Counted from the whole stretch's first letter, positions 2,356 through 57,230 are shown. The stretch: DNA of 61,972 bases, filler included, from 6 parts of 6 records of this genome joined end to end with filler, not necessarily neighbours in it, one strand, 5' to 3'. Translations and numbers: made by a program. The notes: generated by a model not told the origin, from the letters alone.

Positions 2356-3159
2356 TTGATTTCCAAGTTGCGTAAGAAGCGGCCGGCAAAAGAGCCCGCG
2401 GCGGAGAATCCGGCCAGGGGCAAGCTGCCCAACTACAAGGGCACGCTCATCGCTCGTGGCCTGACCAAGGCGTACAAGGGCCGCCAGGTCGTCAGCGGAG
2501 TTTCCATCGGCGTGCGCGCCGGCGAGGCCGTAGGCCTGCTCGGCCCCAATGGCGCAGGCAAGACCACGTGCTTCTATATGGTTACGGGCCTTGTTCCAGT
2601 GGACCAGGGCACAATCCATATCGACGGGCACGACGTTACGGGAATGCCCATGTATCGCCGCGCGCGGCTGGGCATCGGCTACCTGCCTCAGGAAGCCTCG
2701 ATCTTTCGCGGCCTGACGGTGGAACAGAATATCCGCGCGATCCTGGAAGTTGTCGAACCCAGCCGCAAGGAACGCGACAAGAACCTCGACGCGCTGCTTG
2801 ATGAGTTCAACATCAGCCATCTTCGCAAGTCGCCATCGGTCGCGCTTTCCGGCGGCGAGCGGCGGAGGCTGGAAATCGCCCGCGCGCTCGCCAGCCGTCC
2901 CAACTTCATGCTGCTCGACGAGCCGTTCGCCGGCATCGACCCCATCGCCGTGACCGACATCCAACAGCTCGTGCGCCATCTCACCGCGCGCGGCATCGGC
3001 GTCCTGATCACCGATCACAATGTGCGCGAGACGCTCGGACTGATCGACCGGGCCTATATTATTCATGCCGGCCAGGTGCTTACCCACGGACGTCCCAACG
3101 ACATTGTCGGCAATGCCGATGTACGCCGTCTTTACCTCGGCGAAGGCTTCACCCTTTAA
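2356..3159 (+). CDS. lptB: LPS export ABC transporter ATP-binding protein
   Basis: [39 protein letters not shown]-terminal YLGEGF. Confidence 0.95.
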
Positions 3160-3177
3160 CCATTCCCCTCTTTCAAC

Positions 3178-3199
3178 TTGACAAGCAAAAGTCGGGCCA
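3178..3199. promoter_or_regulatory. rpoN promoter -35 (TTGACA) abutting an inversely oriented sigma54 -24/-12 site
   Basis: TTGACA at 3178-3183; minus strand of 3184-3199 reads TGGCCCGACTTTTGCT (GG-N10-GC). Confidence 0.7.
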
Positions 3200-3255
3200 A
3201 TTGAATCCGGCTTTCTCCCGGCTCTCCCAGCCGGGCTCAATCGGGGCTGGTTTTT

Positions 3256-4749
3256 ATGGTGCTTGCGCCAAAACTCCATCTGCGTCAGACGCAATCGCTC
3301 GTTATGACGCCGCAACTGCTGCAGTCGATCAAGCTGCTGCAGATGACACATCTGGAGCTTGAACGCTTCCTCGATTCCGAGATCGAGCGGAATCCGTTGC
3401 TGGAGCGCGGCGAAGCCAATTCGGAAGAACGCACCGAAACCTCGCAGAACGAGCCGGAACTGCGCGAAAACACAGCCGAATCCATTTCGGACAAGCTGGA
3501 CTCCTCACTGGAAAACCTGTTTCCGGATGATCCAGGTACAAAGGAGCGCATCGGCTCCGATCTCTCAGCGCAATGGAAATCGGCGAGTGGCAACGGGCTC
3601 CAAAGCAGCAGCGGCACCGCTTTCGACCTGGAGAGCACAACAGCCGCCGCCCCAACCCTGCGCGACCACGTAAATGGCCAGATCGCGCTGGCCTTCACTG
3701 ACCCCGCGCAATTGCTCATCGCCCATGAACTCGCCGATGGCCTGGATGAGGCAGGCTATCTCGCCCTTGACATCGAAGAACTCACCCAGCGTATCGGCGC
3801 CGCAGCTGAAACCGTCCAGGCAACGCTTTCTACCTGCCAGACATTCGACCCGCCGGGCCTCTTCGCGCGTGATCTGGCGGAGTGTCTCGCACTGCAATTG
3901 ATCGCTCAGGATCGATACGATCCCGCCATGAAGGCGATGGTGGACAATCTCGAGCTTCTGGCAAAGCGCGATTTTCGCACACTCGGGCGCCTGTGCGGCG
4001 TGGATGCAGAGGATCTGGCGGACATGCTTTCGGAAATCCGGGCGCTTGACCCCAAGCCCGGCATGGCGTTCTCGGGCGGCACCGCAGACCCGGTCGTGCC
4101 TGACATCGTCGTCAGGGCGGCAAGCGATGGAAGCTGGACGGTAGAGCTCAATCCTGAAACCCTGCCACGGGTTCTCGTCAACGAACCATACTACGCGAAG
4201 GTTTCCCGTCACGCCCGCGAAGGCGAACGCCAGTTTCTCAACGAATGCCTGCAGAGCGCCAACTGGCTCGCCCGCAGCCTCGACCAGCGGGCAAAGACCA
4301 TCATGAAAGTCGCCTCCGAGATTGTACGCCAACAGGATGCCTTTCTGATCCACGGTGTCAGCCATCTGCGCCCACTCAACCTGCGCACCGTCGCGGAAGC
4401 GATCGGGATGCATGAATCGACCGTAAGCCGCGTGACCGTAAACAAGTACATGATGACCCCCCGCGGCACATTCGAGTTGAGATATTTCTTCACATCGGCA
4501 CTCGGCTCCGCATCCGGCGGTGACGCGCACTCGTCGGAATCGGTCCGCGATCGCATTCGCTCGCTTATTGATGCCGAGGCGCCCTCCGCAGTGCTTTCTG
4601 ACGACGCCCTTGTGGATATGCTGCGCGAAGAAGGCATCGACATTGCCCGCCGTACCGTTGCCAAGTACCGGGAAGCGCTCAATATTCCGTCGTCGGTGCA
4701 GCGCCGCCGCGAGAAGAAGATGCTGGCGGCTGCAGGCACGCGCGCCTGA
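3256..4749 (+). CDS. rpoN: RNA polymerase sigma-54 factor
   Basis: MTPQLLQSIKLLQ, HESTVSRV, RpoN box ARRTVAKYRE. Confidence 0.97.
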   Translation: MVLAPKLHLRQTQSLVMTPQLLQSIKLLQMTHLELERFLDSEIERNPLLERGEANSEERTETSQNEPELRENTAESISDKLDSSLENLFPDDPGTKERIGSDLSAQWKSASGNGLQSSSGTAFDLESTTAAAPTLRDHVNGQIALAFTDPAQLLIAHELADGLDEAGYLALDIEELTQRIGAAAETVQATLSTCQTFDPPGLFARDLAECLALQLIAQDRYDPAMKAMVDNLELLAKRDFRTLGRLCGVDAEDLADMLSEIRALDPKPGMAFSGGTADPVVPDIVVRAASDGSWTVELNPETLPRVLVNEPYYAKVSRHAREGERQFLNECLQSANWLARSLDQRAKTIMKVASEIVRQQDAFLIHGVSHLRPLNLRTVAEAIGMHESTVSRVTVNKYMMTPRGTFELRYFFTSALGSASGGDAHSSESVRDRIRSLIDAEAPSAVLSDDALVDMLREEGIDIARRTVAKYREALNIPSSVQRRREKKMLAAAGTRA

Positions 4750-4766
4750 TTGCGCCTGCGGTTGAA

Positions 4767-4795
4767 TTGACAAGGGCGACGGAAGCCACTAGAAG
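4767..4795 (+). promoter_or_regulatory. Sigma70-like promoter of hpf-ptsN
   Basis: TTGACA-17nt-TAGAAG. Confidence 0.5.
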
Positions 4796-4972
4796 CCCGC
4801 CCGCATGGACTACCAGGCCTTGAGAGCCTTCGACTTTTGTCCGCAGTGCCAGCAACCGAAGAAGGGATACGCGGCCGACTTACATCACAATCCGCCGCGG
4901 CACCTTGTACATGCAAGCCACACGTATAAACTCGATTCGTTCGGTGTCTGATCAGGAAAGGTCTGTTTTCAG

Positions 4973-5548
4973 ATGAGCTTACGTATTTCCGGAAAGCATA
5001 TGGACATCGGCGAGGCGTTTCGCTCGCGTATCGAGGAGCGGATCGGCGAAGCCGTCGACAAGTATTTCGATGGTGGGTTTGCCGGTCGCGTAACGGTTGA
5101 AAAGTCGGGTTCTCGTTTTGCCGCCGATTGTATGATCCATCTCGACACAGGCATGGTGTTGCAGGGCACTGGCCAGGCGCAGGAGCCGCAATCCGCTTTC
5201 GATGCTGCCGCCGAGCGTATCGAAAAGCGTTTGCGCCGCTACAAGCGCCGGCTGAAGTCCCACAACAACGGCCAGACTGTCGATCCGATGGACATTGCGT
5301 ATCGCGTCATGGCGCCGGTGGCCGAAGATGAAGAAGAGGTCCCGGAAGATTACGCGCCCACCGTGGTCGCCGAATCGAAGATGGCTCTGCAGACCATGTC
5401 TGTCGCCTCCGCCGTCATCGAGCTCGACACCAAGGACAATCCTGTCTTCGTGTTCCGCAATGCCGGAAACAACGAAGTGAACATTGTCTACCGCCGCGCC
5501 GATGGAAACATCGGCTGGATCGACCCATCGGCAGTGGCAAGCGCATAG
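4973..5548 (+). CDS. hpf: Ribosome hibernation promoting factor (long HPF/RaiA)
   Basis: RISGKHMDIG, KRLRRYKRRLK, VYRRADGNIGWID; downstream of rpoN. Confidence 0.93.
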   Translation: MSLRISGKHMDIGEAFRSRIEERIGEAVDKYFDGGFAGRVTVEKSGSRFAADCMIHLDTGMVLQGTGQAQEPQSAFDAAAERIEKRLRRYKRRLKSHNNGQTVDPMDIAYRVMAPVAEDEEEVPEDYAPTVVAESKMALQTMSVASAVIELDTKDNPVFVFRNAGNNEVNIVYRRADGNIGWIDPSAVASA

Positions 5549-6281: not shown

Positions 6282-6381
6282 NNNNNNNNNNNNNNNNNNN
6301 NNNNNNNNNNNNNNNNNNNNNNNNNTTAATTAATTAANNNNNNNNNNNNNNNNNNNNNNNNNNNNNNNNNNNNNNNNNNNN
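6282..6381. other. Artificial contig linker
   Basis: N-run + TTAATTAATTAA (stops in all six frames) + N-run, 100 nt. Confidence 0.98.
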
Positions 6382-6769: not shown

Positions 6770-7129
6770 ATGCTCCAGAAAATCCGCTGGTTTTTGTCGT
6801 TGGCGGCCGTCTTGGTCGTCGTCATCGTGGCGTTTCAAAACCAAGACGCGGTGCCGCTAACCATTCTGTTTTTCAGTGGCGAATACCCACTGACGTTGCT
6901 GCTGCTGGGCAGTTCCGGCGTCAGCTTTGTACTCGGGTGTTTGATGACCGCGTGGAGAATCCGCAGTCGCCACAAGGCTCAAATCGCCCGGGAATCCGAG
7001 GCCAAAAAGGGATCCGAAGCCAAAAAAGCGGAAGCTACTGCGAAAGAGACGTCTTCCACGAAGAAGAAAAGTGTCGCGGGCAACGAGTCAGCCGAAGCTT
7101 CCATCGGCTTGGATCAGGAAGCGACCTGA
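6770..7129 (+). CDS. LapA/DUF1049 family membrane protein
   Basis: Two TM helices, AFQNQDAVPL..F motif, charged tail. Confidence 0.75.
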   Translation: MLQKIRWFLSLAAVLVVVIVAFQNQDAVPLTILFFSGEYPLTLLLLGSSGVSFVLGCLMTAWRIRSRHKAQIARESEAKKGSEAKKAEATAKETSSTKKKSVAGNESAEASIGLDQEAT

Positions 7130-7479
7130 ACGTTGTCGTCGGCAGCGTCAAAGTCGCTGGCCTTCTGCTGCGACGCGGCACGGCGACGGGCCACCAAATC
7201 GTGGCGACGCAAAACGGCTTGAGCAAGATCGCCGATTCGCTGGATGGGGCGTTCGGTCGACGCCTGCTGAGCTTTGAGCTGCTCCCGGCCTTCGCGGATC
7301 AATTCGGCGAGAGCCAACAAAGTGTTGTCCGACCCATTGGACTTCGATGCCGCGACGATTGGCATCACGGATGATTGAGTTGCCGGTGCGGTGTGAGTTG
7401 CCGGTGCCGCGGTTGCGGAGACCGATGCGATCACGGGGGAAACCGGTGCGATGGCGTCGAAGAGAGAAAGCTGAGTCAT
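7114..7479 (-). CDS. Hypothetical protein with N-terminal QLSLF motif
   Basis: ATG 7479 preceded by GAAGG; MTQLSLFD, Ala/Thr linker, helical C-terminus. Confidence 0.6.
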   Translation of the reverse strand: MTQLSLFDAIAPVSPVIASVSATAAPATHTAPATQSSVMPIVAASKSNGSDNTLLALAELIREGREQLKAQQASTERPIQRIGDLAQAVLRRHDLVARRRAASQQKASDFDAADDNVQVAS

Positions 7480-7833
7480 TCGAAAAACCTTCGTCAGTGG
7501 GGCGGGAGGCCGGAGTGACGTGTGGGTCACGTCTCACTGAAAAGATTGTTCGCAAGGTCCGTGACACGTTTGGTCACGCGGGAAGAGCGTTCGAATGTGA
7601 CGGTTGTGAGGATCGCACTTCCAGGGGGTGTTCGATCTCCCCGGTCGTTCGTAAAACGTTTGCCTCTAACGACTTGGGGAACTAATGTGACCCATGCTTT
7701 ATTGGCCGCTCTGGCTACCGGTGCATCGCATTTGCACGGTGGACATGGCCGCTGGCATCTCACTTATCCCCAACCCTGCCACCCCAGTTAGTCAGCTCGT
7801 CGACAGTTTTCGCTGCCGTGGACGAGCGATCTG

Positions 7834-8742
7834 GTGCGTGAGCGCTGCACAACTGGCGTTCCTTTGCTCTGGAAACCTGCACCTCTTTCTGCTGTCAAAC
7901 AATCGACACGTTCGGTGGCAATCTCATTGGCTGCCGTGGGGGCGATCGCATTGGCCACGTCATTGGCATGTGTCGCCACCGAAACCACTCAACTGATGTT
8001 GGTTTTGTCATCGATCGGTCGTGACACAATCGTTTGGACGAATTGGGGATTGGCGTTGTTGTTGTTTATGGCAACGACCGCGTATGTGTTTCCGATCTTG
8101 TCGCGAGCCTTTGGTGTGCGGGTCAAGCATTGGTTTCCCCTGCTGACTCGTCGCAAATTGCGGTTGTCGGACCTGGCGACTGAGCGACGTGCGCTTCGCG
8201 GGTGTTTGATTGTCTTGGCTGCATTTCCATTGCAAACGAGTTTGGCTCATTCGGTCATGTTGCGAGCCACTCGCGGGGACTCACCCACGCCACTCGTGCC
8301 GGCTTGGTCGTTCTTGATATTGGCCGTTGTGATGATGATCGTCGGGGCGGTGATTCATTTTCGATTGCCCAAAATTTATTTGAAGTGTCGTTTCGATTCG
8401 CTTCTCAATGGACTTCGGCACTATTCTCGCGGCGTTGCGCTTCGCAGTTTCATCGCTCAGTGGGACAACCCAACTCGAGAAATCTACACGGCATGCCGAG
8501 TCAGCCGCCGAGTCGCATGGGCATATCGCGCCGGCATCCTGATTTCCGCCGCATGCTTCACCGCCGCCGGTTGCTTGGTCGCGCGAGTCGAACTGCCATG
8601 GGCATTGGATGAATTGGGGACCGTGATCGCCATTGCCTGCATTTTCAGTTTGTGGCCGACCGCGGTGCGAATGGTGAACTGGAGCGGTTTGGTTCTCGAT
8701 CCCATTTGTGGCGGTCCAGACGAATTCGATGAGTACGAGTGA
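7834..8742 (+). CDS. Hypothetical multi-pass membrane protein (start uncertain)
   Basis: Several hydrophobic segments; first gene of a co-oriented run. Confidence 0.6.
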   Translation: MRERCTTGVPLLWKPAPLSAVKQSTRSVAISLAAVGAIALATSLACVATETTQLMLVLSSIGRDTIVWTNWGLALLLFMATTAYVFPILSRAFGVRVKHWFPLLTRRKLRLSDLATERRALRGCLIVLAAFPLQTSLAHSVMLRATRGDSPTPLVPAWSFLILAVVMMIVGAVIHFRLPKIYLKCRFDSLLNGLRHYSRGVALRSFIAQWDNPTREIYTACRVSRRVAWAYRAGILISAACFTAAGCLVARVELPWALDELGTVIAIACIFSLWPTAVRMVNWSGLVLDPICGGPDEFDEYE

Positions 8743-8839
8743 CTGATCGCCGGTCGGTCAAAAAGACGCACACGGGTGAAAACCTGCTGATTCGGCTACA
8801 ATCGTCCCCGTCATTGCCAAGAGGCGATCAACTCGACGT

Positions 8840-9304
8840 TTGACGAGACCGGGAGGCAGACGATTGGAATTCCTCGAAATCGAATGGTGCACGCCGCTGT
8901 ACCAGGAGGCATTGGATCTGAGGCATCGGGTGCTGCGCGAACCTTTGGGGCTCCGTCTGACGGCCGAGGAATTGGATGGCGAATACGCGGATTTGCACTT
9001 CGGATTGCGAAATGGATCTGAAAACCTGGTGGCCGTTTTGTCAGCAAAACCTCTGACATCCAGTGCTGTCAAATTGCGTCAAATGGCGGTTGATCCGGAA
9101 AAACAAGGCGAGGGACTCGGCGCGAAATTGCTTGGAGAGGTCGAGTCGGCATTGGAGAAAAAGGGCTACTCGCAATTCCAACTGAACGCTCGAGAAACTG
9201 CGATTGGTTTCTATGAAAAGGCGGGCTACACCGCTGTGGGAGAAACCTTCACTGAAATTTCTCTGCCGCATCGCAAGATGGTGAAGCCGCATGTCGACGT
9301 CTGA
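8840..9304 (+). CDS. GNAT N-acetyltransferase
   Basis: LRQMAV..QGEGLG, NARETAIGFYEKAGY. Confidence 0.88.
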   Translation: MTRPGGRRLEFLEIEWCTPLYQEALDLRHRVLREPLGLRLTAEELDGEYADLHFGLRNGSENLVAVLSAKPLTSSAVKLRQMAVDPEKQGEGLGAKLLGEVESALEKKGYSQFQLNARETAIGFYEKAGYTAVGETFTEISLPHRKMVKPHVDV

Positions 9305-9767
9305 ACCCTCCACCGCCGACATCGTTTCGGGCCTGATGAATCAATGCACCGTCGGTTCGCTGGCAACACAGATGGCGGATTCCGATGCATCGCCACGACC
9401 ATATGTGTCGCTTGTCACGGTGGCTCGAGTCGGTGAAACTTCGATGGCGATGCTGCTAAGCGGTCTGGCAAAACACACTCAGAACCTGGCGAAGTGCCCC
9501 GCCGTGTCGCTCCTACTTTGCGAAGAGACTTCTCCTGATTCCGATCCAATGGCCGCTCCGCGTGCCACATTGATGGGTCAAATTGTTCGCTTGCCGCATG
9601 AAGATGATATGAATGTTCGGGACGCCTTCTTGCAGAAGCACCCGAATTCGCGAATGGTGGCGGGGTTCGGGGATTTCTTCTTTCACGTGATGCACATCGA
9701 AGAATGCCATGTGATCGCAGGGTTTGGGCGAATTGAAACCCTCTCGTCTTCTTGTCTACGGGTTTGA
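9291..9767 (+). CDS. Pyridoxamine 5'-phosphate oxidase-like/HugZ split-barrel protein
   Basis: GSLAT, PYVSLV, LSGLAKHTQNL, FGDF, AGFGR. Confidence 0.82.
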   Translation: MSTSEPSTADIVSGLMNQCTVGSLATQMADSDASPRPYVSLVTVARVGETSMAMLLSGLAKHTQNLAKCPAVSLLLCEETSPDSDPMAAPRATLMGQIVRLPHEDDMNVRDAFLQKHPNSRMVAGFGDFFFHVMHIEECHVIAGFGRIETLSSSCLRV

Positions 9768-9820
9768 CGGACCCACCTCGTTCCTGTCTTTTGCTCATCT
9801 CAGTATTTGGTCAATTGTTC

Positions 9821-12644: not shown

Positions 12645-14899
12645 CATCTTTGATGCACGAAGAACCGATGGAGTGGCGTGATTGGTTGTCGGATGATCGC
12701 GTTGTGCTGGGTGCGCTGACCATTGGTTTGGCTTGGTTCTTGGGCGGCACGTTTGTGACTTCGCCCGCATGTATCTTGGTCGCCACAATCAGCTTGGTTG
12801 TTGTGGTCTTTGTCCGCCTTCGTTGGCCGGAACCAATCTTGTCGAACGCCAGTTGGAAAATGCGAGCGGCTCGCGGTGGCGTGTTGTTTTTAGCAATGAT
12901 CGGTTCGATTCTGATTGTCTTTGCATGGCGTTTCTATCCCGCGTTGCAAGGCACGCCCAACGTGTTGTTGGTTGCGGTCGATTCGATTGGCCATGCGGCT
13001 TTCATGCTGATGTGCGTGTTGTGGATGCATTGGCCACGTCGTGGCCACGTCATGATGTTGGTGTTAGGGATGACCGTGGTGTTGATGTCGGTCGCTGGGG
13101 GCGGACTCAGTACAACCGTCACGGCACAATCCGCGTTGGGGTTGACCGTGTGCATCGGCTTTGTGTTGGCGACGCGGGCGATGAACAGTGGTTTGTCAAA
13201 GGAACAAGCAGCCGCAGGACCACATTCGTATGAGGAAACCCCCAAGCGAATTGGCGGGGCGCTGTATCGGTTCATGGCATTGTTCGCGATGTTAATCGCC
13301 GCGTCCGCAACCACCCATGCCACGATATGGTTCCTGCCGGATGTTCAAGCGGGCGTGATGGCCCAACTAAACGATCGTTTGGAAGCGACTTCGAGTCGAG
13401 GTTGGGGCGGAACGGATCGCTATGTCACCGGATCACGTTTGGGCAACGTTCGCGAGTCGATTCTTAGCGACCCAGCAGCAATCGCGTTGAAAGGTTTTGC
13501 CGAGACTAAACCTGGTTACCTTCGCGGGAATGTTTACGATTCCTACAGCAACGGACGTTGGCGAACGTCTCGCAAGTGGATCTTTCAATCACCTCCCGGC
13601 AGCGGTGTCCGGCGTGTTGCGGAAGCTCGCTTTCTGCGTCCCGATGGGGTTGCGACGATGTCGCTTCAAAACACGGACGATCATTTTCGACAACGTTATT
13701 CCATGCGAATTGGATCGGTTGAAGACGAAGTCGATCCATCGATCGAGTTGATGAACTGGAACGGTGTTGAGTCAACAGACATTGCCGGCGGACGCTTTGT
13801 CGGGACCGTTGAGATTCACGGTGAACCGAGCAAAGGACAAAAAGTGTTCTTGCCCGCGGCGACTCGGTGGATTGAGTTGGCGGGTGAAGGCGTCGGAATC
13901 ACGCCGCATGGATTGCTGGGGTACGGAGTGGATGTTCGTTGGCCTTGGGTGGCTGGAGTTCAAGAAAATCCTCCGGCCGAAGTGTTGGGTGAGGAGGATC
14001 GCGAAGCTTTGTTGCGTGTGGAATCTGAGTTTCAGTCGCAACTCAAAATGTTGACCGAAGGTTTGATGGATGGTGTGAAGACCAACGCCGAACGTGCGGA
14101 TCGGGTCGCTCAGTTCTTCAAACTGAACTACGAGTACTCACTTGATCCGATCACCGTTCCACCGAAGGTCGATCCGTTGACTCACTTCATTCAAAGTCGG
14201 CATCCGGCTCACTGCGAGTTGTTTGCCAGCGCGACCGCGTTGATGTTGCGGACGGTAGGTGTTCCAACTCGTTACGTGACGGGCTACGTCATGGACGAAC
14301 TGGACGATGCGGGGGAGGCGTATCTGGCTCGTAACCGAGACGCGCACGCTTGGGTCGAGTACTACGACGAGGACGCATCACGATGGTTGCCGGTCGAGTC
14401 GACGCCGGGGCGTTCTTATCTCTCCATGCAGCACCAGGAAGTGTCGCTGCCGGGTGCCGGTGGCGGCGGAAGCAATGAGCAAACCGAGGACGTTACACGA
14501 AGTTGGTTTGCTCCCATCTTGAGTTGGTGGGCGTCCATGCGAGCGACCGATACTCTGGTCACGTTGTTCCGTTGGTTGCAGGTGCCTTTGTTGATTTTCC
14601 TGGTCACGGTGTTGTGGCGACGAAACCGAACCAAGCCTGGTGACCAACGCAGTGTCCAGTTGGCTGCCGAACGTCGCCGGATGGACCGGCGCATTCGTCG
14701 GCTTGGTTGGGTGCGACGGCCGAGTGAAACCCTGCACACGTTTGCCAGCCGGTTGGAATTCGAAGCGATCGCAAGTCCAGCCGGGGAAGAGCTTTTGAAA
14801 GCCGCGAACTGGTATCGCGAACACGCGGTGGAGTGTTACCGCGGTGTTCCGATGACGACACCGCTCACTCGGCAGGACGTCTCAGTCGTTCAAACGTGA
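12641..14899 (+). CDS. TgpA-like membrane transglutaminase-domain protein (DUF3488)
   Basis: N-terminal TMs, YLRG, HCELFASA, PTRYVTGY, AHAWVEYY triad motifs. Confidence 0.9.
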   Translation: MTSLMHEEPMEWRDWLSDDRVVLGALTIGLAWFLGGTFVTSPACILVATISLVVVVFVRLRWPEPILSNASWKMRAARGGVLFLAMIGSILIVFAWRFYPALQGTPNVLLVAVDSIGHAAFMLMCVLWMHWPRRGHVMMLVLGMTVVLMSVAGGGLSTTVTAQSALGLTVCIGFVLATRAMNSGLSKEQAAAGPHSYEETPKRIGGALYRFMALFAMLIAASATTHATIWFLPDVQAGVMAQLNDRLEATSSRGWGGTDRYVTGSRLGNVRESILSDPAAIALKGFAETKPGYLRGNVYDSYSNGRWRTSRKWIFQSPPGSGVRRVAEARFLRPDGVATMSLQNTDDHFRQRYSMRIGSVEDEVDPSIELMNWNGVESTDIAGGRFVGTVEIHGEPSKGQKVFLPAATRWIELAGEGVGITPHGLLGYGVDVRWPWVAGVQENPPAEVLGEEDREALLRVESEFQSQLKMLTEGLMDGVKTNAERADRVAQFFKLNYEYSLDPITVPPKVDPLTHFIQSRHPAHCELFASATALMLRTVGVPTRYVTGYVMDELDDAGEAYLARNRDAHAWVEYYDEDASRWLPVESTPGRSYLSMQHQEVSLPGAGGGGSNEQTEDVTRSWFAPILSWWASMRATDTLVTLFRWLQVPLLIFLVTVLWRRNRTKPGDQRSVQLAAERRRMDRRIRRLGWVRRPSETLHTFASRLEFEAIASPAGEELLKAANWYREHAVECYRGVPMTTPLTRQDVSVVQT

Positions 14900-26215: not shown

Positions 26216-26315
26216 NNNNNNNNNNNNNNNNNNNNNNNNNNNNNNNNNNNNNNNNNNNNTTAATTAATTAANNNNNNNNNNNNNNNNNNNNNNNNNNNNN
26301 NNNNNNNNNNNNNNN
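26216..26315. other. Artificial contig linker
   Basis: N-run + TTAATTAATTAA + N-run. Confidence 0.98.
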
Positions 26316-42029: not shown

Positions 42030-42312
42030 AGAGAAGTGGGCCGTTCTGTTGCTAGGTGGCCCAACCCCCACCTGAAGGCGTCAACCCTCAGGAATTTATA
42101 AATGTAGTCCTTGTGACTGCTTACGCAGCAACAGCGAACTCGACGTCATTGTCGTTAGCATTTATTAAAGGTGGCCCATTACAGCGGTGCCATCCTGGGC
42201 GAAAGGCATAACATCTTTCGATACACGTCGATCCTGGTTCGCCCCCGTCAGCAAAGGTCAGACATGGATCTCTGGCCGTTCCTGGTGGAGGCGCCGGGCA
42301 CTGCCCCCGGGT
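42030..42312 (-). ncRNA. ssrA: Permuted two-piece tmRNA (5' part cut by linker); tag ANDNDVEFAVAA
   Basis: Minus strand: T-arm and CGCCTCCACCA ending at 42283, 36-nt intervening segment, GGGGGCG start at 42246 (G3.U70 pair), tag frame 42159-42121; 3' boundary approximate. Confidence 0.95.
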
Positions 42313-42412
42313 NNNNNNNNNNNNNNNNNNNNNNNNNNNNNNNNNNNNNNNNNNNNTTAATTAATTAANNNNNNNNNNNNNNNNNNNNNNNNNNNNNNNN
42401 NNNNNNNNNNNN
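42313..42412. other. Artificial contig linker
   Basis: N-run + TTAATTAATTAA + N-run. Confidence 0.98.
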
Positions 42413-50950: not shown

Positions 50951-51050
50951 NNNNNNNNNNNNNNNNNNNNNNNNNNNNNNNNNNNNNNNNNNNNTTAATT
51001 AATTAANNNNNNNNNNNNNNNNNNNNNNNNNNNNNNNNNNNNNNNNNNNN
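50951..51050. other. Artificial contig linker
   Basis: N-run + TTAATTAATTAA + N-run. Confidence 0.98.
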
Positions 51051-51051
51051 C

Positions 51052-51771
51052 ATCAAATATTTTGTAGTGTCGGAGAATGAATTGGAAAATGAATACAAAG
51101 TCTTTCCTTCATCCGGACTGGTCATTGGTTTTCAATACAAGGGACAACTTGCTACAATAAAAGAAAATACAGAAAACAAACTGAATTCGGCTGGAATAAC
51201 AGGAATTACTGACAGCTACAAAGTGTTCAAAAATTCGGCAGATATAGGAACTGTTTTGGTTTACTTTACCGAAATTGGTTTTACACATTTTGCTTCACAT
51301 CCAGCCAACGAACTCTTTAATTTAAGCCTTTCGCTTAACGACATTTTTGATAAAAACAGCATAATAGAAGTTGAAGAAAAATTAGCAATTGCCAACCCAG
51401 ACAAACTTCGAATAAAAATCGTTGAACAGTTTTTAGCATCCCAGCTCAAAGACATTCAAACAGACAAATTAATAGTTGAAGCCGTTAAACTTATTTACCA
51501 AAGTAATGGAACTATCCGTATAAAAGAGCTGAATGAAAAGCTATTTATCAGCCAAAGCCCATTTGAAAAGCGGTTTAGAAAAGTGGTTGGAACAACAGCT
51601 AAAAAATTTGCTTCCATTGTTCGCTTCAACACAGTTCTTGACAATCTGAGCGAAACCAAAACACTGTCAGAAATCTGTTACGAAAACAATTTCTTCGACC
51701 AAGCACACTTTATCAAAAACTTCAAACAATTTACGGGCGACACTCCCGAAAACTTCAAACGCTTCTTGTAA
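51052..51771 (+). CDS. AraC family regulator, 5' truncated
   Basis: FEKRFRKVVG, FFDQAHFIKNFKQFTGDTP. Confidence 0.92.
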   Translation: MKYFVVSENELENEYKVFPSSGLVIGFQYKGQLATIKENTENKLNSAGITGITDSYKVFKNSADIGTVLVYFTEIGFTHFASHPANELFNLSLSLNDIFDKNSIIEVEEKLAIANPDKLRIKIVEQFLASQLKDIQTDKLIVEAVKLIYQSNGTIRIKELNEKLFISQSPFEKRFRKVVGTTAKKFASIVRFNTVLDNLSETKTLSEICYENNFFDQAHFIKNFKQFTGDTPENFKRFL

Positions 51772-51948
51772 AAAAACGATTTTTTACAATTACAGGGTTA
51801 TCCATCTTTTCATCTTTGCATTGTAAACTTAATGTAAAGGCATTTGGTAAAATCAACTCTAAGATCGACAATCATATTATTATCAAGTTTGAGCATTATG
51901 GTTGCGTGTAATTCAACAAATCGTTTAACAATTAAAAATCAAGAAAAA

Positions 51949-52338
51949 ATGTTTACAATAACACAAATCAAATCAGCTCACAGCAAAGTAAAATCAGGTG
52001 CGGATTTTCCTTCGTATATCCAAGACCTAAAAAAGTTAGGTGTAACGTACTATGAAACTTTTGTAGCTGATGGACATACCGACTACTATGGAGTAAATGA
52101 TTACAAAATCACATCCCCTGCAAAATATGAGGCATTAACAGTAGCAGAAAAGTCTAACGAAGAACAGTTTAAAACAGACTTAAAAATTCATCAAGATGGC
52201 AAGACCAATTATCCGACTTTCTGTTCTGACTGTGCCAAGTCAGGTATTGAAAAGTGGGCGGTTTGTATGGAAAAAATGACCTGCACTTATTATGACAAAG
52301 CAGGAAATGAAATGTTGGTGGAAGAAATTCCGAAATAA
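51949..52338 (+). CDS. DUF1398 family protein
   Basis: MFTITQIKSAHSKVKSGADFPSYIQDLKKLGV, HQDGKT.Y, CTYYD; possible TTG start at 51844. Confidence 0.85.
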   Translation: MFTITQIKSAHSKVKSGADFPSYIQDLKKLGVTYYETFVADGHTDYYGVNDYKITSPAKYEALTVAEKSNEEQFKTDLKIHQDGKTNYPTFCSDCAKSGIEKWAVCMEKMTCTYYDKAGNEMLVEEIPK

Positions 52339-52344
52339 AAAACT

Positions 52345-52475
52345 GCCTACAACATCAGCTATGACCCCAGCGCCGCTTTTTCCTTCGGAAATCTGTCTTT
52401 TTGTATGGAAAAAAGTCTTAATTTCAGGAAAACGATTTCGGTAAGCGCCGTGGCATAGCTGTAGTCGTTATAGCC
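52345..52475 (+). repeat. attC-like site A (complete hairpin)
   Basis: GCCTACAAC-ATCAGCTATG ... CATAGCTG-TAGTC-GTTATAGCC; starts 6 nt after a stop and ends 15 nt before the next ATG. Confidence 0.7.
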
Positions 52476-52490
52476 AATTAAAACCGCCGT

Positions 52491-52976
52491 ATGTCAGTCT
52501 CTAAAAAAGGAGCAAGAAAGATAACTGTAGAGGGCATTGATTATTTGTTCAAAGTTTCTAAAGTAAAGAAGAAGTCTGATTGGAGAGCAGAAAAAAATGA
52601 GCTAGATGAATCATTTATGAGTTATGCAAGTCAATATGGTCTAGGAAACGTAATGGATGTAACAATAAACATTGTCATTCAGCTTTACAACTTACGTAAA
52701 TCGAGTATGTTTGTTAAGTATCATACAATTCTAGTCGATGGTTTTATGGGAGCTGAACAATTAACACAGATAAAACCAAGCATGGTCGCTCAACTCATTA
52801 GCCATGGATTAGATAACGGATGGAATCCAAATATCGAGGGGGACTTTAGATTAAATTTGGTAGAACAAAGAACGGATAAATTAGAACCGCTAATTCTGGT
52901 ATTACCAAATTCGAATCACCATGATAAAAACTACCAAAACGTTGAAATTCTCTTTGAAATAAAGATTGAACATTAA
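52491..52976 (+). CDS. Hypothetical protein (cassette-like ORF 1)
   Basis: KKGARKITVEG..Y, PSMVA..I..GL..GWNP; no room for a promoter. Confidence 0.75.
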   Translation: MSVSKKGARKITVEGIDYLFKVSKVKKKSDWRAEKNELDESFMSYASQYGLGNVMDVTINIVIQLYNLRKSSMFVKYHTILVDGFMGAEQLTQIKPSMVAQLISHGLDNGWNPNIEGDFRLNLVEQRTDKLEPLILVLPNSNHHDKNYQNVEILFEIKIEH

Positions 52977-53023
52977 CCAAGATTGGTTCAAGCTATAGTA
53001 CATCAGGAAGAAGTACCTAAAAA

Positions 53024-53452
53024 ATGGGAGAACGATTTGAAACTTTTATTACTAGCTTGAGTGACCACGAATTAGTGGTTTATGTTGGTTATCAATATGA
53101 AAGTTTACTTAAGAAATCTCAAGTACGCGTTAGTAAAGAAATAGAGGATCGTGGTCTATCCAAGAAGCAACTTGAAAGGTTGTATAATAAACAATTGGAA
53201 CATACTGAAACAGAATATTTTTGCGAAAGATGTGGCTCTAATAAGTTCTTTAATGATATTGATATTGAGTTTCAAAATAGCGACCACTTCACTTCTGAAA
53301 TTGAGGTTAAAACTAAGAGGTGTCGGATTTGCAACTATAATCCATCAAAAGTAGCTGATAGAAGTTTATTGCATAAGATCAAGAATTTTTTCCTTAGTGA
53401 TCCTAATAAAACCGAAAAGAAAATCAGAACTTATGATTGGTTCGGTAAATAG
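53024..53452 (+). CDS. Hypothetical zinc-ribbon protein (cassette-like ORF 2)
   Basis: CERCGS...CRICNY. Confidence 0.75.
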   Translation: MGERFETFITSLSDHELVVYVGYQYESLLKKSQVRVSKEIEDRGLSKKQLERLYNKQLEHTETEYFCERCGSNKFFNDIDIEFQNSDHFTSEIEVKTKRCRICNYNPSKVADRSLLHKIKNFFLSDPNKTEKKIRTYDWFGK

Positions 53453-53459
53453 TATAAAC

Positions 53460-53650
53460 GCACTATAACATACAACTAACCTCAATCATAGCCCACTTCC
53501 TAATTCATAGGTTCCAGATTGAGATGAAACTGTAAACGCCAATGATAGAAGAACGGTTAAAAAAAGTAATTTTCACAGTAAAAAGTATTGAATTGAACAG
53601 TTATTTAACGCGACGAAATATGGTTTTATTACCATTAACTGCGAATTAAA
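53460..53650 (+). repeat. attC-like site B (left arm intact, right arm degenerate)
   Basis: GCACTATAAC 7 nt after stop; AATCATAGCCCACTTCC nearly shared with site D; right end CCATTAACTGCGAATTAAA. Confidence 0.5.
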
Positions 53651-53684
53651 CATTGAGATTAATAAGGAATTCGAACAATCACTT

Positions 53685-54083
53685 TTATCTTCCTGAAAGA
53701 CTATGTACCATTGGGATCGAATTTAAAAAATCAATCCATTCCTGTAGAATATCAAGGAATTCCTGGATAGGAATGTTTATGTAGTTGGTTCCATTCCAAA
53801 ATGAAACCCTATTTGGTGAAGCAAAAATCTCGGCATGACCATGAAAGCTATATATATCAGATACAAAATTATTCTCTAAACGCTCATCTAAGTTGAAACT
53901 GTTCACTTCATCAATGATTTCCTTAGTGAACTTTGCCCCTCCTTCATTAATGAACTCTGCTAATTCAATGTTTTGAGAATAACCATTCTCGTCAAGTCCA
54001 CATTTCACAAAAGGAAACGGTCCACTCGGTGATGGAACCCGCGTAAATATTAAGTGATATTTCTCTGCCTTGGGGTATTTCAT
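53685..54083 (-). CDS. Hypothetical protein, immunity-protein-like, inverted in array
   Basis: Acidic/aromatic 132-aa ORF ending IPIQEFLDILQEWIDFL. Confidence 0.65.
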   Translation of the reverse strand: MKYPKAEKYHLIFTRVPSPSGPFPFVKCGLDENGYSQNIELAEFINEGGAKFTKEIIDEVNSFNLDERLENNFVSDIYSFHGHAEIFASPNRVSFWNGTNYINIPIQEFLDILQEWIDFLNSIPMVHSLSGR

Positions 54084-54113
54084 GTTCAATCGCGATGATC
54101 AAGATAGAAATAA

Positions 54114-54148
54114 AAGGTATGTTTAGGCAAATGTTAGCAATAATTAAA
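54114..54148 (+). repeat. attC-like site C (right arm only)
   Basis: GGTATGTTTAGGCAAAT-GTTAGCAATA-ATTAAA immediately before ATG 54154. Confidence 0.55.
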
Positions 54149-54153
54149 CGAAC

Positions 54154-54900
54154 ATGAACAAGTCAATTTTGGCACTTTTAGTCTGTTTATTAATCGTGAG
54201 CTGTAGCTCTCGGATTGAGGAGAGTAAAAACGAGCTTCAAAGTCAAGAAAATAAAAGTGAGTCATGGAAATTCGAAAATTACATTGATTCGGTACAAATT
54301 CTATTGACGAATGAATATCAGTTAGATGAATCATTTGGTTATGGAGCCAGCTCTTTCTTAATAAAAGCAAAAGGAGATACCCTTTTATGCACAGCTAAGC
54401 ATCTTTTGGGAGAAGCTATGGGAATAAGCCCAGAAATTAAAACCAATAAGTTTAACTCCAATTTAGGATATTGGAAAGCTTATCCAAGAAATAATAAAAT
54501 TACGAATGATACTATCTCTGTCTCCAAATTGATTACTGAAAAACAGAACGATGTTGATATCATTCTACTCGCTTGTCAACTTGGAAAAGAAAATGCAATC
54601 ATGACACTTACCCCAAGATTTTCAAAACCAACAAAGGAAGAAAGGTTTGAAATAATTGGCTGTGAATATTCTGATACAAAGTGTCATCAACGAAGCTATT
54701 TCGCAACTATGGACTCCTACGAAGGTGGGCAACTACTTCTAAAATCTGAAGTTAAATTTACACCAAGTGGTTTTAGTGGAGCTCCCGTTATAGATTCTAA
54801 GGGATTAGTTATTGGACTCTTATCAGGAGGAGGAGAATTCAACGGAGCACTTTATCTTTCAATTGAACCTCTATCAAAAATTGAAAATTATTTAAAATGA
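54154..54900 (+). CDS. Trypsin-like serine protease lipoprotein (cassette-like)
   Basis: Lipobox IVSC, TAKH, DVDII, GFSGAPV...VIG. Confidence 0.85.
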   Translation: MNKSILALLVCLLIVSCSSRIEESKNELQSQENKSESWKFENYIDSVQILLTNEYQLDESFGYGASSFLIKAKGDTLLCTAKHLLGEAMGISPEIKTNKFNSNLGYWKAYPRNNKITNDTISVSKLITEKQNDVDIILLACQLGKENAIMTLTPRFSKPTKEERFEIIGCEYSDTKCHQRSYFATMDSYEGGQLLLKSEVKFTPSGFSGAPVIDSKGLVIGLLSGGGEFNGALYLSIEPLSKIENYLK

Positions 54901-54902
54901 AA

Positions 54903-54977
54903 TATTGTTAACACAATAGATGAATCATAGCCGACCTCCAGGACGTCAACCATTTTTAGAGCAAATCGTTAGTATTC
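54903..54977 (+). repeat. attC-like site D
   Basis: TATTGTTAAC...AATCATAGCCGACCTCC...TTTAGAGCAAATC-GTTAGTA. Confidence 0.6.
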
Positions 54978-55250
54978 TAGCAGAATTAAAATGCCTCCCG
55001 AAAAATCCCAGACTCCGTTAGTCTACAATTTAGACCAATCCCATTCATTAGATCAATTGGAAAAGAAACTAATGAGGATTTAAACGGAACTCTATCTTCA
55101 CTACCTGCCAAAAAAAATCAACTAAGTCACCCGTAAATGTTGGTGATGTAACATTATGTAACGCCTCTTTTTTGCATTATCATTTTACACGTTGTTAATT
55201 TACACTTAACATTTTCAATTAATGCAATTGCTCCCAAATTATACTACACT

Positions 55251-57130
55251 ATGACCTTAAATTCATCCTTTTCCAAAAGAATAATTTTATCAATTGTATT
55301 TCTTTCATTATACATTTCTTCCGCTTTATCACAATCTGACACACCTTGTGGAGCCCCAGCACTGCCCGTTGGGACATCTTGTTCATACACATTAGGCGAT
55401 GCTGCTGGAGCAACGCGAGCGACCGTAGCGGAAAATGTAGCAGATGCTAATTGCGGTTCTTATAGTCTTCCAACATGGGTGCGTGAAGATACCTGGTTTT
55501 CTTTTGTTGCCCCAGCCAGCGGAACAGTGATTATTGAAACCTTCGCACCTCAGCCAATAGCCTATTCAGATGATTATCCTTATGCAGGAGCCGCAGTTTA
55601 CAGTGGTACTTGTGGCAACTTAACTCAGATGATTTGTGATTATGATGCTGCGCAGAATAACTACCCTGAATTTAACTTAACAGCATTAACACCCGGTGCC
55701 ATTTATTACATCCGTTTTTGGGGAATTAGCAGCACAGTGAAACTTGATAAGACTTACAATATTTGTATTTGGGAACCCGCCCCACCTCCCATCAATGACG
55801 AATGTGCCAATGCTACGTCTGCAGTGGTAAACCCAGGTGTGAACTGTGCTATGAGTACTCCTGGTACAATTCAAGGTGCGACTCAATCACCTCAATCTAA
55901 TTGGTGCGGTGGAACAGTAAACGACGACGTTTGGTTTACATTTGTAGCGACCAATACAACCCATTATTTTAACTTAAACAATATTGCTGGCTCTACTACA
56001 AGTTTAACTTATCAAGTTTTTTCTGGGACATGTGGATCACTTTCGAACGCAACCTGTAATAGTGGAGTAGCAAATGGTCTAACAATAGGTAATACCTATT
56101 ACGTCAGGGTTTGGTCTACAGGAAGCACCTTTGAAACCTCAACTTTTGACTTATGCATCACAAGTCCACCTATTCAGCCGTCCTGTGTAGCAAATCCCGT
56201 TGCAGGAAACACAGCCTGTACAGCAACTCCAATCTGTAATTTGAACGGATATTGCGGAACAACTTCCAGTACCTATTCAGCTAATTATTGGCCAGAACTA
56301 CAAACTCAATTCTGTAATGCAACCATAGAAAATAATTCGTTTCTTACTTTTACAGCCCAAGCTACGACGATTTCCTTTAGTGTTTGGGTATCCAACTGTA
56401 ACCTACCAAATGGGATTCAAATAATGGTTTTTTCTGCCGCAAATTGTGGAAGTGGCCCCGTCACATCGCATACATGCTGGAACCCTGGAAATGTTCCTGT
56501 GGCTCCAACACTTATACAAGCAACTGGACTGACAGTTGGTGACCAATACTACATTATGATCGATGGAAATAGCGGCGCTGTTTGTGACTATGTAATTGGT
56601 GCTAACGAAGGCTTTCAATTACCCGTGGTAGTGTCATCAGTAACCTCTGAAACGAGTATTTGCTTAGGAGAATCTATTGATTTAGTTGCAACTGGAGGAA
56701 CGGGAAACTATACATGGTCGCCATCAACAGGTTTAAATAATACCATTGGTGACACAGTAACATCAACCCCTCTTGCTACGGGCTCGATCACCTATACTGT
56801 AGCGTCAACAATAATCAACTCTGTATGCCCTTCGGCCTCAGGTCAATTTACTTTAACAGTTGGAAACACGGTTTACAGTACCGACACTCAAGTTGGGTGT
56901 GGCTCTTACACATGGATCGATGGCAACACATATACGGCTAGTAATAACACAGCTACTTATACCGTTTTCGGGGGCTCATCCGCGGGTTGCGACTCTATTA
57001 TCACACTCGACTTAACCATATCTAACGGAGCAATTAACAGCACGGATTTTCAAGTTGCTTGTGGATCATATACATGGATTGATGGTATTAACTACACCGC
57101 TAGTAATAACACCGCCACTTTTACCATTGT
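55251..57130 (+). CDS. Large Cys-rich secreted surface protein (likely T9SS substrate), 3' truncated
   Basis: Signal peptide, repeated D.WF.F.A / YY.R.W modules, NDECANA, repeated CGSYTWIDG..YTASNNTAT units. Confidence 0.8.
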
Positions 57131-57230
57131 NNNNNNNNNNNNNNNNNNNNNNNNNNNNNNNNNNNNNNNNNNNNTTAATTAATTAANNNNNNNNNNNNNN
57201 NNNNNNNNNNNNNNNNNNNNNNNNNNNNNN
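57131..57230. other. Artificial contig linker
   Basis: N-run + TTAATTAATTAA + N-run. Confidence 0.98.

Follow-up and report, generated by a model that had tools for sequence, protein, structure and literature searches.

The stretch of DNA analyzed here, referred to as the window, comprises 61,972 bases made up of contigs chained by N44-TTAATTAATTAA-N44 linkers, and is not one molecule. The region of interest is the contig at 51051–57130 (6,080 bp, AT-rich, approximately 35% GC), where both limits of the gene context are contig ends. The GC content of the joined contigs spans 34–61%, and the neighbors of this contig are high-GC, Alphaproteobacteria-like DNA. An initial annotation, made from sequence alone, described an integron-like gene-cassette array with four attC-like hairpins (sites A–D) in a Bacteroidota fragment with no integrase in view, served in trans by an unrecognised tyrosine recombinase. 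All sequences that it quoted for the four sites are present where it placed them. The closest relative, L001, is a metagenome-assembled genome (MAG) contig of a Cyclobacteriaceae member, 94% identical over 51051–52354 with no detectable similarity beyond, and the assignment to Bacteroidota is therefore right; a tblastn search with the recombinase of related genomes (see below) gave no related tyrosine recombinase in the window.

The genes of the contig were taken from the open reading frame (ORF) listing and Pfam, and are collected with the other features in Table 1. A truncated AraC-family regulator gene and a DUF1398 gene are followed by site A, by 2.5 kb carrying the ORFs P0001–P0004, and by a gene for a secreted protein that probably represents chromosomal flank. 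The GC content is 33.8% across 52482–55250 versus 42.6% in the 55251–57130 flank.

Table 1. Features of the window and of two comparison loci; R2 denotes the hairpin-family model described in the text.
Feature	Source	Position	Strand	Description
AraC-family regulator	window	51067..51771	+	HTH_18 3.8e-14, HTH_AraC 5.4e-09 (Pfam); 5' end cut by contig end
DUF1398 gene (P0005), second gene of putative cassette	window	51949..52338	+	Pfam DUF1398 6.1e-45; stop TAA 52336-52338
Site A	window	52339..52481	+	attC-like imperfect palindrome
Site A, extended R'' box	window	52339-52353		AAAACTGCCTACAAC; contains CTACAAC 52347-52353
Site A, L''-like box	window	52356-52363		CAGCTATG
Site A, L'-like box	window	52454-52461		CATAGCTG
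Site A, extended R' box	window	52467-52481		GTTATAGCCAATTAA; contains GTTATAG 52467-52473
P0001, possible cassette gene	window	52491..52976	+	161-aa ORF; no Pfam family at cut-off; Atlas best 0.86, uninformative; GC 33.3%
P0002, possibly one cassette with P0001	window	53024..53452	+	142-aa ORF; two CxxC pairs; no Pfam family at cut-off
Site B (candidate)	window	53462..53546	+	stem CCTCAATC / GATTGAG; R'-like GTAAACGCCAATGAT; R2 E 0.49 in contig
P0003	window	53685..54083	-	132-aa ORF; no Pfam match; Atlas best 0.89, weak UPF0231 leads only, uninformative
Site C (candidate)	window	54101..54147	+	R'-like end only, GTTAGCAATAATT 54133-54145; fold z +1.4; no hairpin
P0004, trypsin-like lipoprotein	window	54154..54900	+	248 aa; Pfam Trypsin_2 2.8e-07
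Site D (candidate)	window	54901..54979	+	R''-like AATATTGTTAAC 54901-54912; B/D motif 54923-54939; R'-like GTTAGTA 54968-54974; no hairpin
Truncated secreted protein	window	55251..57130	+	GBD_T9SS_assoc (galactose-binding-like), Pfam 1.5e-08; 3' end cut by contig end
Linkers	window	6282-6381, 26216-26315, 42313-42412, 50951-51050, 57131-57230
IS110-family transposase gene	L069	13083-14084	opposite to cassettes	beside R2-type sites
Group II intron reverse transcriptase gene	L069	15549-16865	opposite to cassettes	beside R2-type sites
Intergenic repeat of about 330 nt	L009	1364-1954, 5187-5767, 8539-8883, 11324-11632, 14016-14263

Site A starts at the first base past the DUF1398 stop codon. Its hairpin spans 127 nt from CTACAAC to GTTATAG in the layout R box, unpaired spacer, L box and variable center, with GTTATAGCCAATT as its end. 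Integron attC sites are imperfect palindromes of approximately 57–141 nt that run from RYYYAAC to GTTRRRY; CTACAAC and GTTATAG keep the AAC and GTT, and each departs from this consensus at two positions. Folded as single-stranded DNA, the bottom strand of site A reaches −28 kcal/mol (z −5.0, 0/200 shuffles as good) and the top strand −19.4 kcal/mol (z −2.4, 2/200 shuffles as good), and the arms are complementary at 12/15 positions (3/300 shuffles).

A genome scan with the DUF1398 protein yielded 67 related Bacteroidota loci. In two of the genomes compared, a Chryseobacterium MAG (L006) and Epilithonimonas caeni DSM 17710 (L005), each cassette is followed by an imperfect palindrome of roughly 125–135 nt running from ...YAAC to GTT.... 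Seven of these sites were aligned and gave 22 pairs with RNAalifold, and the model built from them, R1, found more copies in Parapedobacter, Algoriphagus and a Flavobacteriales MAG. R1 missed the window, and only the broader model R2, for which 13 sites were drawn from five loci outside the window, reached it. R2 matches site A over its full length (model positions 1–149, + strand) and scores 23.9 bits, with an E-value of 0.013 against 1.24 Mb and, when filters are disabled, of 6.5e-5 against the contig, placing AAAACTGCCTACAACAT on the consensus 5' box and CGTTATAGCCAATTAA on the consensus 3' box with the outer stem matched. In the 13-site alignment, 84.5% of cells are paired versus at most 49.1% with slid partners, and 18 of the 22 pairs show changes on both sides; none of 500 shuffles reaches any of the five measures used. 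Site A is a real member of a conserved hairpin repeat family of about 140 bases, and its initial description as a full imperfect hairpin is correct. The family consists of structured repeats that separate co-oriented genes in arrays of other Bacteroidota. The closest relative, L001, provides an example, where + strand gene units (DUF1330 with GNAT, AraC with DUF1398, HEPN with nucleotidyltransferase, Fic, and an outer-membrane beta-barrel, named by eye from ORF translations rather than by family search) are separated by repeats.

Position and orientation of the family are equally regular. Of the R2 matches with E<0.05, 27/29 lie on the gene strand, the two minus-strand matches being re-readings of palindromic + strand sites, and in 22/24 matches that have an upstream gene the start falls between −24 and +18 nt relative to the stop codon that closes a + strand ORF. 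These properties also suit a different explanation, namely that the hairpins are structured intergenic repeats, resembling repetitive extragenic palindromes (REPs) or terminators, that would stabilize transcripts, terminate them or be selfish palindromic elements, rather than recombination sites, and that the recombinase described below is coincidental: sites at the stop codons of co-oriented genes could be 3' elements of an mRNA, covariation of the stem is equally expected of an RNA element, and many cassettes encode a regulator of their own (AraC, Crp) and would thus be ordinary transcription units. A terminator function finds little favor at this locus, since site A is not followed by a T-run and a scan of the contig returned two intrinsic terminators versus 3.9 expected (at 53063 and 55355), none of them at sites A–D.

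The gene pair preceding site A has the outline of a discrete unit. AraC-DUF1398 occurs at 75–94% nucleotide identity across Cytophagales, Flavobacteriales, Sphingobacteriales and others, and the genes beside it differ in every locus. In comparisons between loci, homology sets in precisely at the G (of G|TT) of GTTGTAGGC, an R'-like box (L006 9019; the corresponding G is at 1598 in L001 and 9021 in L007), and similarity to the window ends at 52352–52356, that is, at or just past the CTACAAC box; the module is bounded by GTTGTAGGCAATTTT ... AAAACTGCCTACAAC. As judged from these comparisons, AraC-DUF1398 behaves as a mobile cassette common to several genomes with its boundary at G|TT. A GTT...CAATTT box is missing upstream of the pair in 14 of the 23 listed loci (L004, L009, L061, L020, L021 and others), and the pair therefore occurs both boxed, as a cassette, and unboxed, in a chromosomal setting. 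In some loci DUF1398 is found without AraC.

The two arrays with a visible start, L005 and L006, have cassette boundaries at G|TT and hold a second signal. The 15 nt following G|TT at the 5' edge of a cassette (R') are complementary to the 15 nt up to and including the AAC of its 3' edge (R'') at 13, 11, 11 and 14 of 15 positions, as in GTTGTGCGAT against ATCGCACAAC; 238 other pairings average 7.3 ± 2.0. Such cassette-specific complementarity is the signature that circular cassettes crossing over at G|TT would leave. Neither this complementarity nor a homology breakpoint exactly at G|TT has a role in an RNA hairpin, and both argue against REP-like or terminator-like repeats. The simple R' pattern GTTnnnSSCAAT lacked the specificity to be of use (110 matches versus 34 in shuffles, mostly in coding sequence).

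A tyrosine recombinase gene (274 and 279 aa in L006 and L005, respectively) lies on the minus strand at the edge of both arrays, facing the + strand array. Next to it, L005 and L006 share a GTT-ending block, CGCAATGCGTAWATTTGGGWGTT, past which the two sequences diverge, as at attI; the block was not found, with up to five mismatches, in the other 73 sources (72 loci and the window). The enzyme passes the NCBIfam model NF040815, 'site-specific tyrosine recombinase/integron integrase' (246.6 bits versus a cut-off of 220), and falls below the TIGR02249 integron-integrase cut-off of 265, scoring 209.9 (L006) and 208.1 bits (L005) in two separate stretches. Relative to IntI1 it is 31% identical, with the catalytic R, HxxR, H and Y aligned and about 45 residues of IntI1 189–248 missing; the available text of a tyrosine-recombinase survey calls the insertion in that region essential for integron function (PMC8138268). 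By sequence, the recombinase is best described as a member of the Xer/IntI branch that is not a canonical IntI and lacks the IntI-specific insertion. A regular expression for the catalytic motifs proved unreliable for finding recombinases, and Pfam was used instead.

R2 sites adjoin the recombinase in 5/7 Bacteroidota loci that carry it, the loci having been reached by way of the recombinase or DUF1398. Independently found relatives of the enzyme are encoded on Bacteroidota plasmids with R2 sites within 9 kb: L069 (Chryseobacterium sp. SNU WT5) has four sites of 36–54 bits, L071 (Flagellimonas) a single site of 68 bits and L073 (Persicobacter) two; no R2 site was found near the recombinase in C. 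oryzae, Arenibacter or the Clostridium outgroup. Adjacency in five of seven loci and the conserved block beside the recombinase gene speak against a coincidental enzyme, and together with the edge complementarity they make REP-like or terminator-like repeats an unlikely account of the family, even though sites without a recombinase in view (L007, L050, L001) speak for it. Of the recombinase first postulated, one part stands: a non-canonical enzyme adjoins arrays in related genomes, but the window itself has none.

Several of these loci show further features. Among its sites, the SNU WT5 array (L069) holds a transposase gene of the IS110 family together with a group II intron (Table 1), and a partial site at 13031–13097 ends about where the IS110 gene begins. 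IS110-family elements and group II introns are known to target attC sites. In L071 (Flagellimonas marinaquae plasmid, 7032–9804), the R2 site (7592–7743, minus strand, 68 bits) lies just upstream of a dihydrofolate-reductase-family gene, and erm(F) is located between this site and the xerA-type recombinase gene. Genes of beta-lactamase fold and other resistance-type genes are present in some arrays (L007, L013).

Based on these observations, we consider it fairly probable that the contig 51051–57130 is the edge of an integron-like, Bacteroidota-type gene-cassette array with site A as its recombination site. The AraC-DUF1398 cassette would end in the box AAAACTGCCTACAAC, followed by its own recombination site, site A; related genomes carry the same kind of site after the stop codon of each cassette and a small recombinase at one end of the array. 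We infer that this recombinase acts on the sites to excise and insert cassettes, crossing over in or beside the R boxes (G|TT / AAC), with the site in hairpin or cruciform form; the substrate could be single- or double-stranded. The P0001–P0004 stretch would most likely consist of former or divergent cassettes with shortened or decayed sites, of which only P0004 keeps suggestive boxes. The integron-like array of the initial annotation thus survives in site A, in the AraC-DUF1398 cassette and in the recombinase of related genomes, but not in sites B–D, in extrahelical bases or in a preference for folding of the bottom strand.

A number of observations weigh against this proposal, beginning with those in the window. 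Sites B, C and D fold like shuffled sequence (z −1.3 to +1.5, 23–200 of 200 shuffles as good; −0.8 and −1.3 for site D), and their R2 scores are not significant (8.3, 3.2 and, for 54940–54979 of site D, 3.6 bits), so that as hairpins or family members they are unsupported. One of the four junctions in the window is therefore demonstrated, site A, and the four-site array first described is not. The 47-nt spacer between P0001 and P0002 also folds no better than shuffles. The boxes flanking P0001–P0002 (GTTATAGCC / CACTATAAC) are complementary at 10/15 positions (77/300 shuffles) and those of P0003 give 211/300 shuffles, neither of which is significant; P0003, moreover, lies on the opposite strand. 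For P0004, the flanks GTTAGCAATAATT (8 nt before its ATG) and AATATTGTTAAC are complementary at 12/15 positions (6/300 shuffles), a result that is only nominally significant as one of 16 comparisons, and this is the only place in the window where the complementarity expected of a G|TT boundary is found.

The same data bear on whether site A alone is meaningful and the remainder, 52482–54980, is an ordinary AT-rich islet whose genes are orphans and whose AAC/GTT boxes and short motif matches arose by chance. The spacings between ORFs and boxes are roughly as initially claimed, but the DUF1398 stop codon lies 8 nt from the AAC box rather than 2–7, and AAC and GTT are frequent in AT-rich DNA. A contig-wide scan for inverted pairs (14 nt, at least 11 matches) gave 124 pairs versus 67–109 in 30 shuffles and was swamped by background, and no homologue of P0001–P0004 was found in the 67 related loci. 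The B/D motif AATCATAGCCnACnTCC (at 53484 and 54923) and the C/D motif TTTAG(A)GCAAAT(C)GTTAG (at 54122 and 54955) are present as originally written, but the local alignments are marginal, being matched by 22/300 shuffles for B–D and 5/300 for C–D, and neither is present in the 67 loci even when one mismatch is allowed. Against an islet with chance motifs alone, the P0004 boxes sit at exactly the expected positions, the C–D match is reached by few shuffles, and sites C and D have R'-like ends similar to CGTTAGcgGtAATTtt, the consensus of the family. In the R2 alignments, not significant as they are, B, C and D retain consensus-like R' ends (GTAAACGCCAATGAT, GTTAGCAATAATT and GTTAGTATTCT) with most of the hairpin missing, which fits shortened remnants; site B is possibly a shortened, diverged copy of the repeat. 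The drop in GC content relative to the flank, and the different cassettes that L001 holds at the position of P0001–P0004, also disfavor the islet. We judge it quite improbable that site A stands alone. The 2.5 kb past site A may instead represent decayed cassettes, with P0004 as the best candidate for a second cassette, as the complementarity of its flanks suggests.

Outside sites B–D, the points that count against a cassette array concern the enzyme and the recombination site itself. The window lacks a recombinase; L070 and L072 carry the enzyme without R2 sites; and the DUF1398-anchored loci L007, L050 and L001 have sites with no recombinase within the locus sequence examined. The same recombinase family also accompanies IS91 transposases (L070, L074), and family membership alone does not therefore imply cassette recombination; the recombinase genes are directly beside IS91-family transposase genes on plasmids of Chryseobacterium oryzae (L070 10753–12695) and Clostridium tagluense (L074 174–2211). 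Two integron traits anticipated by the initial annotation are absent: the L box of site A contains no extrahelical base, CAGCTATG/CATAGCTG forming a perfect 8-bp duplex, and the family shows no strand bias in stability, the bottom strand being more stable in 15/27 sites. Furthermore, the site interior after DUF1398 differs among genomes whose cassettes are 80–94% identical. In L001, a unit of approximately 570 nt keeps a constant 62-nt hairpin upstream and has varying long sites downstream, which renders the crossover point ambiguous. Finally, neither excised cassettes nor rearrangements among strains were seen.

The L001 unit is present in five whole or partial copies (2981–3550, 4440–5005, 7177–7381, 1–385 and 1394–1535). 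It consists of the 62-nt hairpin (CAAC...GTTGAAC, z −4.9), about 500 nt with an opposite-strand ORF of 64–68 aa, and the end ...TAGTTCAAC. Its own ends are complementary at 9/9 positions, and its order misfits a simple cassette of ORF followed by site; the termini of the repeat, GTTGAACTA / TAGTTCAAC, nevertheless suit a cassette. Insertion at CAAC of an element of IS200/IS605-like or group II type was considered for this repeat and found no support in Rfam, which gave two chance-level matches on L001 (E up to 1). On eight further loci Rfam returned Flavo-1 RNA only, located in L009 at 14310–14388, and a gathering-threshold search of the whole window returned tmRNA only, a permuted alphaproteobacterial gene at 42121–42339 (minus strand) that abuts a linker (RF04321, 71.5 bits; RF01849, 59.2 bits). 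L009 (Flavobacterium procerum) carries a different intergenic repeat that is not in Rfam (Table 1), recurring every 3 kb or so around AraC-DUF1398, starting with ATTCATAGAGCCAAAG and ending in a terminator-like hairpin (GGCGCCAATTG...CAATTGGCGCC, then Ts).

The proposed array resembles integrons, especially sedentary chromosomal ones whose repeats are species-specific (Vibrio VCRs, for instance), in that co-oriented cassettes are each followed by an imperfect palindrome of the 57–141-nt class that starts with ...AAC and ends with GTT...; in the order of R box, unpaired spacer, L box and variable center; in the cassette-specific complementarity of R boxes expected from crossover at G|TT; and in an array edge that carries an attI-like block and a tyrosine recombinase belonging to the Xer/IntI branch. 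As in sedentary chromosomal integrons, the sites within one genome resemble each other. Unlike in integrons, the R boxes extend to approximately 15 bp, many cassettes comprise two genes including their own regulator, and the orientation of the recombinase varies, being divergent from the array in L005 and L006 and co-directional in L069 and L073; the missing IntI-specific insertion, the score below the TIGR02249 cut-off, and the lack of extrahelical bases (site A) and of bottom-strand bias are further differences.

These differences also bear on how the contig relates to canonical integrons. The window, with a site, putative cassettes and no recombinase, could be a fragment of one, a cluster of attC sites lacking an integron integrase (CALIN), with ordinary attC sites and a true IntI elsewhere in the genome. 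The length of site A, its AAC and GTT ends and its box layout would suit such a fragment, and Bacteroidota are counted among integron-bearing phyla in reviews (PMC8618304, in the part available; 10.1101/2022.02.06.479319), a presence reported at phylum level in the accessible portions of PMC8618304 and PMC9024848. The recombinases beside the sites are not of the IntI type, however; R2 is blind to class 1 attC sites (two sites in L068); and the outer boxes, the uninterrupted L box and the lack of bottom-strand bias depart from ordinary attC sites. According to the available text on IntegronFinder 2.0, the complete genomes of Bacteroidetes hold only In0 and one complete integron, in Salinibacter, and a CALIN requires at least two matches to the attC model (PMC9024848), as against one supported site in the window. 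A canonical integron fragment is accordingly a very remote prospect.

The idea of such arrays is not entirely novel: the nearest published relative of the Bacteroidota-type array is rAID-1 (recombinase-associated acquired interbacterial defence) of Bacteroidales, which combines an XerD-like recombinase with arrays whose intergenic repeats are termed 'reminiscent of integrons' in the accessible text (10.1101/471110). The definition given there asks for a recombinase with no less than 44% identity to BF9343_RS08045 that precedes two or more co-directional genes with a GC content of at most 41%. Similarities include an XerD-like recombinase heading an array of co-oriented genes that are short, low in GC and separated by conserved motifs (10.1101/471110; PMC12247911, both as available in part), the GC content of 33.8% at the present locus, which is within the 41% limit, and a SUKH immunity-type gene in the L006 array. 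The arrays described here differ in belonging to Flavobacteriales, Sphingobacteriales and Cytophagales, and in a cargo of regulators, glyoxalases, dehydrogenases and toxin-antitoxin pairs in place of mainly immunity genes. The main text of the rAID-1 accounts, as far as it is available and apart from figures and supplements, describes neither hairpin sites nor an R-box logic (10.1101/471110; PMC12247911), and the biogenesis of rAID-type arrays is described as open in the available part of PMC12247911. The full-text literature, excluding subscription journals and the rAID figures and supplements, gave no account of attC-like hairpin repeats with such a recombinase in Flavobacteriia, Sphingobacteriia or Cytophagia.

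A further parallel is found on Acinetobacter plasmids in the pdif modules, whose genes are enclosed by double-stranded 28-bp sites of Xer type in inverse orientation. The present modules would likewise be bounded by sites for an Xer-type recombinase, but their junctions are palindromes of about 140 nt with covarying inner stems. Taken more broadly, Flavobacteriia, Sphingobacteriia and Cytophagia might share a system parallel to integrons, with an Xer-like recombinase, attC-like hairpins of about 140 nt and 15-bp R boxes, that moves pairs of the AraC-DUF1398 type between classes, and of which rAID-1 would be one branch. Such a system would escape integron finders because the integrase profile and the attC model both miss it. 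We put this wider proposal forward tentatively, at somewhat less than even chances.

Integrons are regarded as nearly absent from Bacteroidota, for which PMC9024848 lists In0 elements and the single complete integron of Salinibacter. If site A and its relatives are working sites for an Xer-like enzyme, cassette capture would not need the IntI-specific domain, and arrays of the rAID type would gain a concrete site model and a crossover logic. The same mechanism would explain how one regulator-effector pair comes to be present at 75–94% nucleotide identity in different bacterial classes. With resistance-type genes in some arrays and one site beside erm(F), the system may also bear on gene flow in environmental Bacteroidota.

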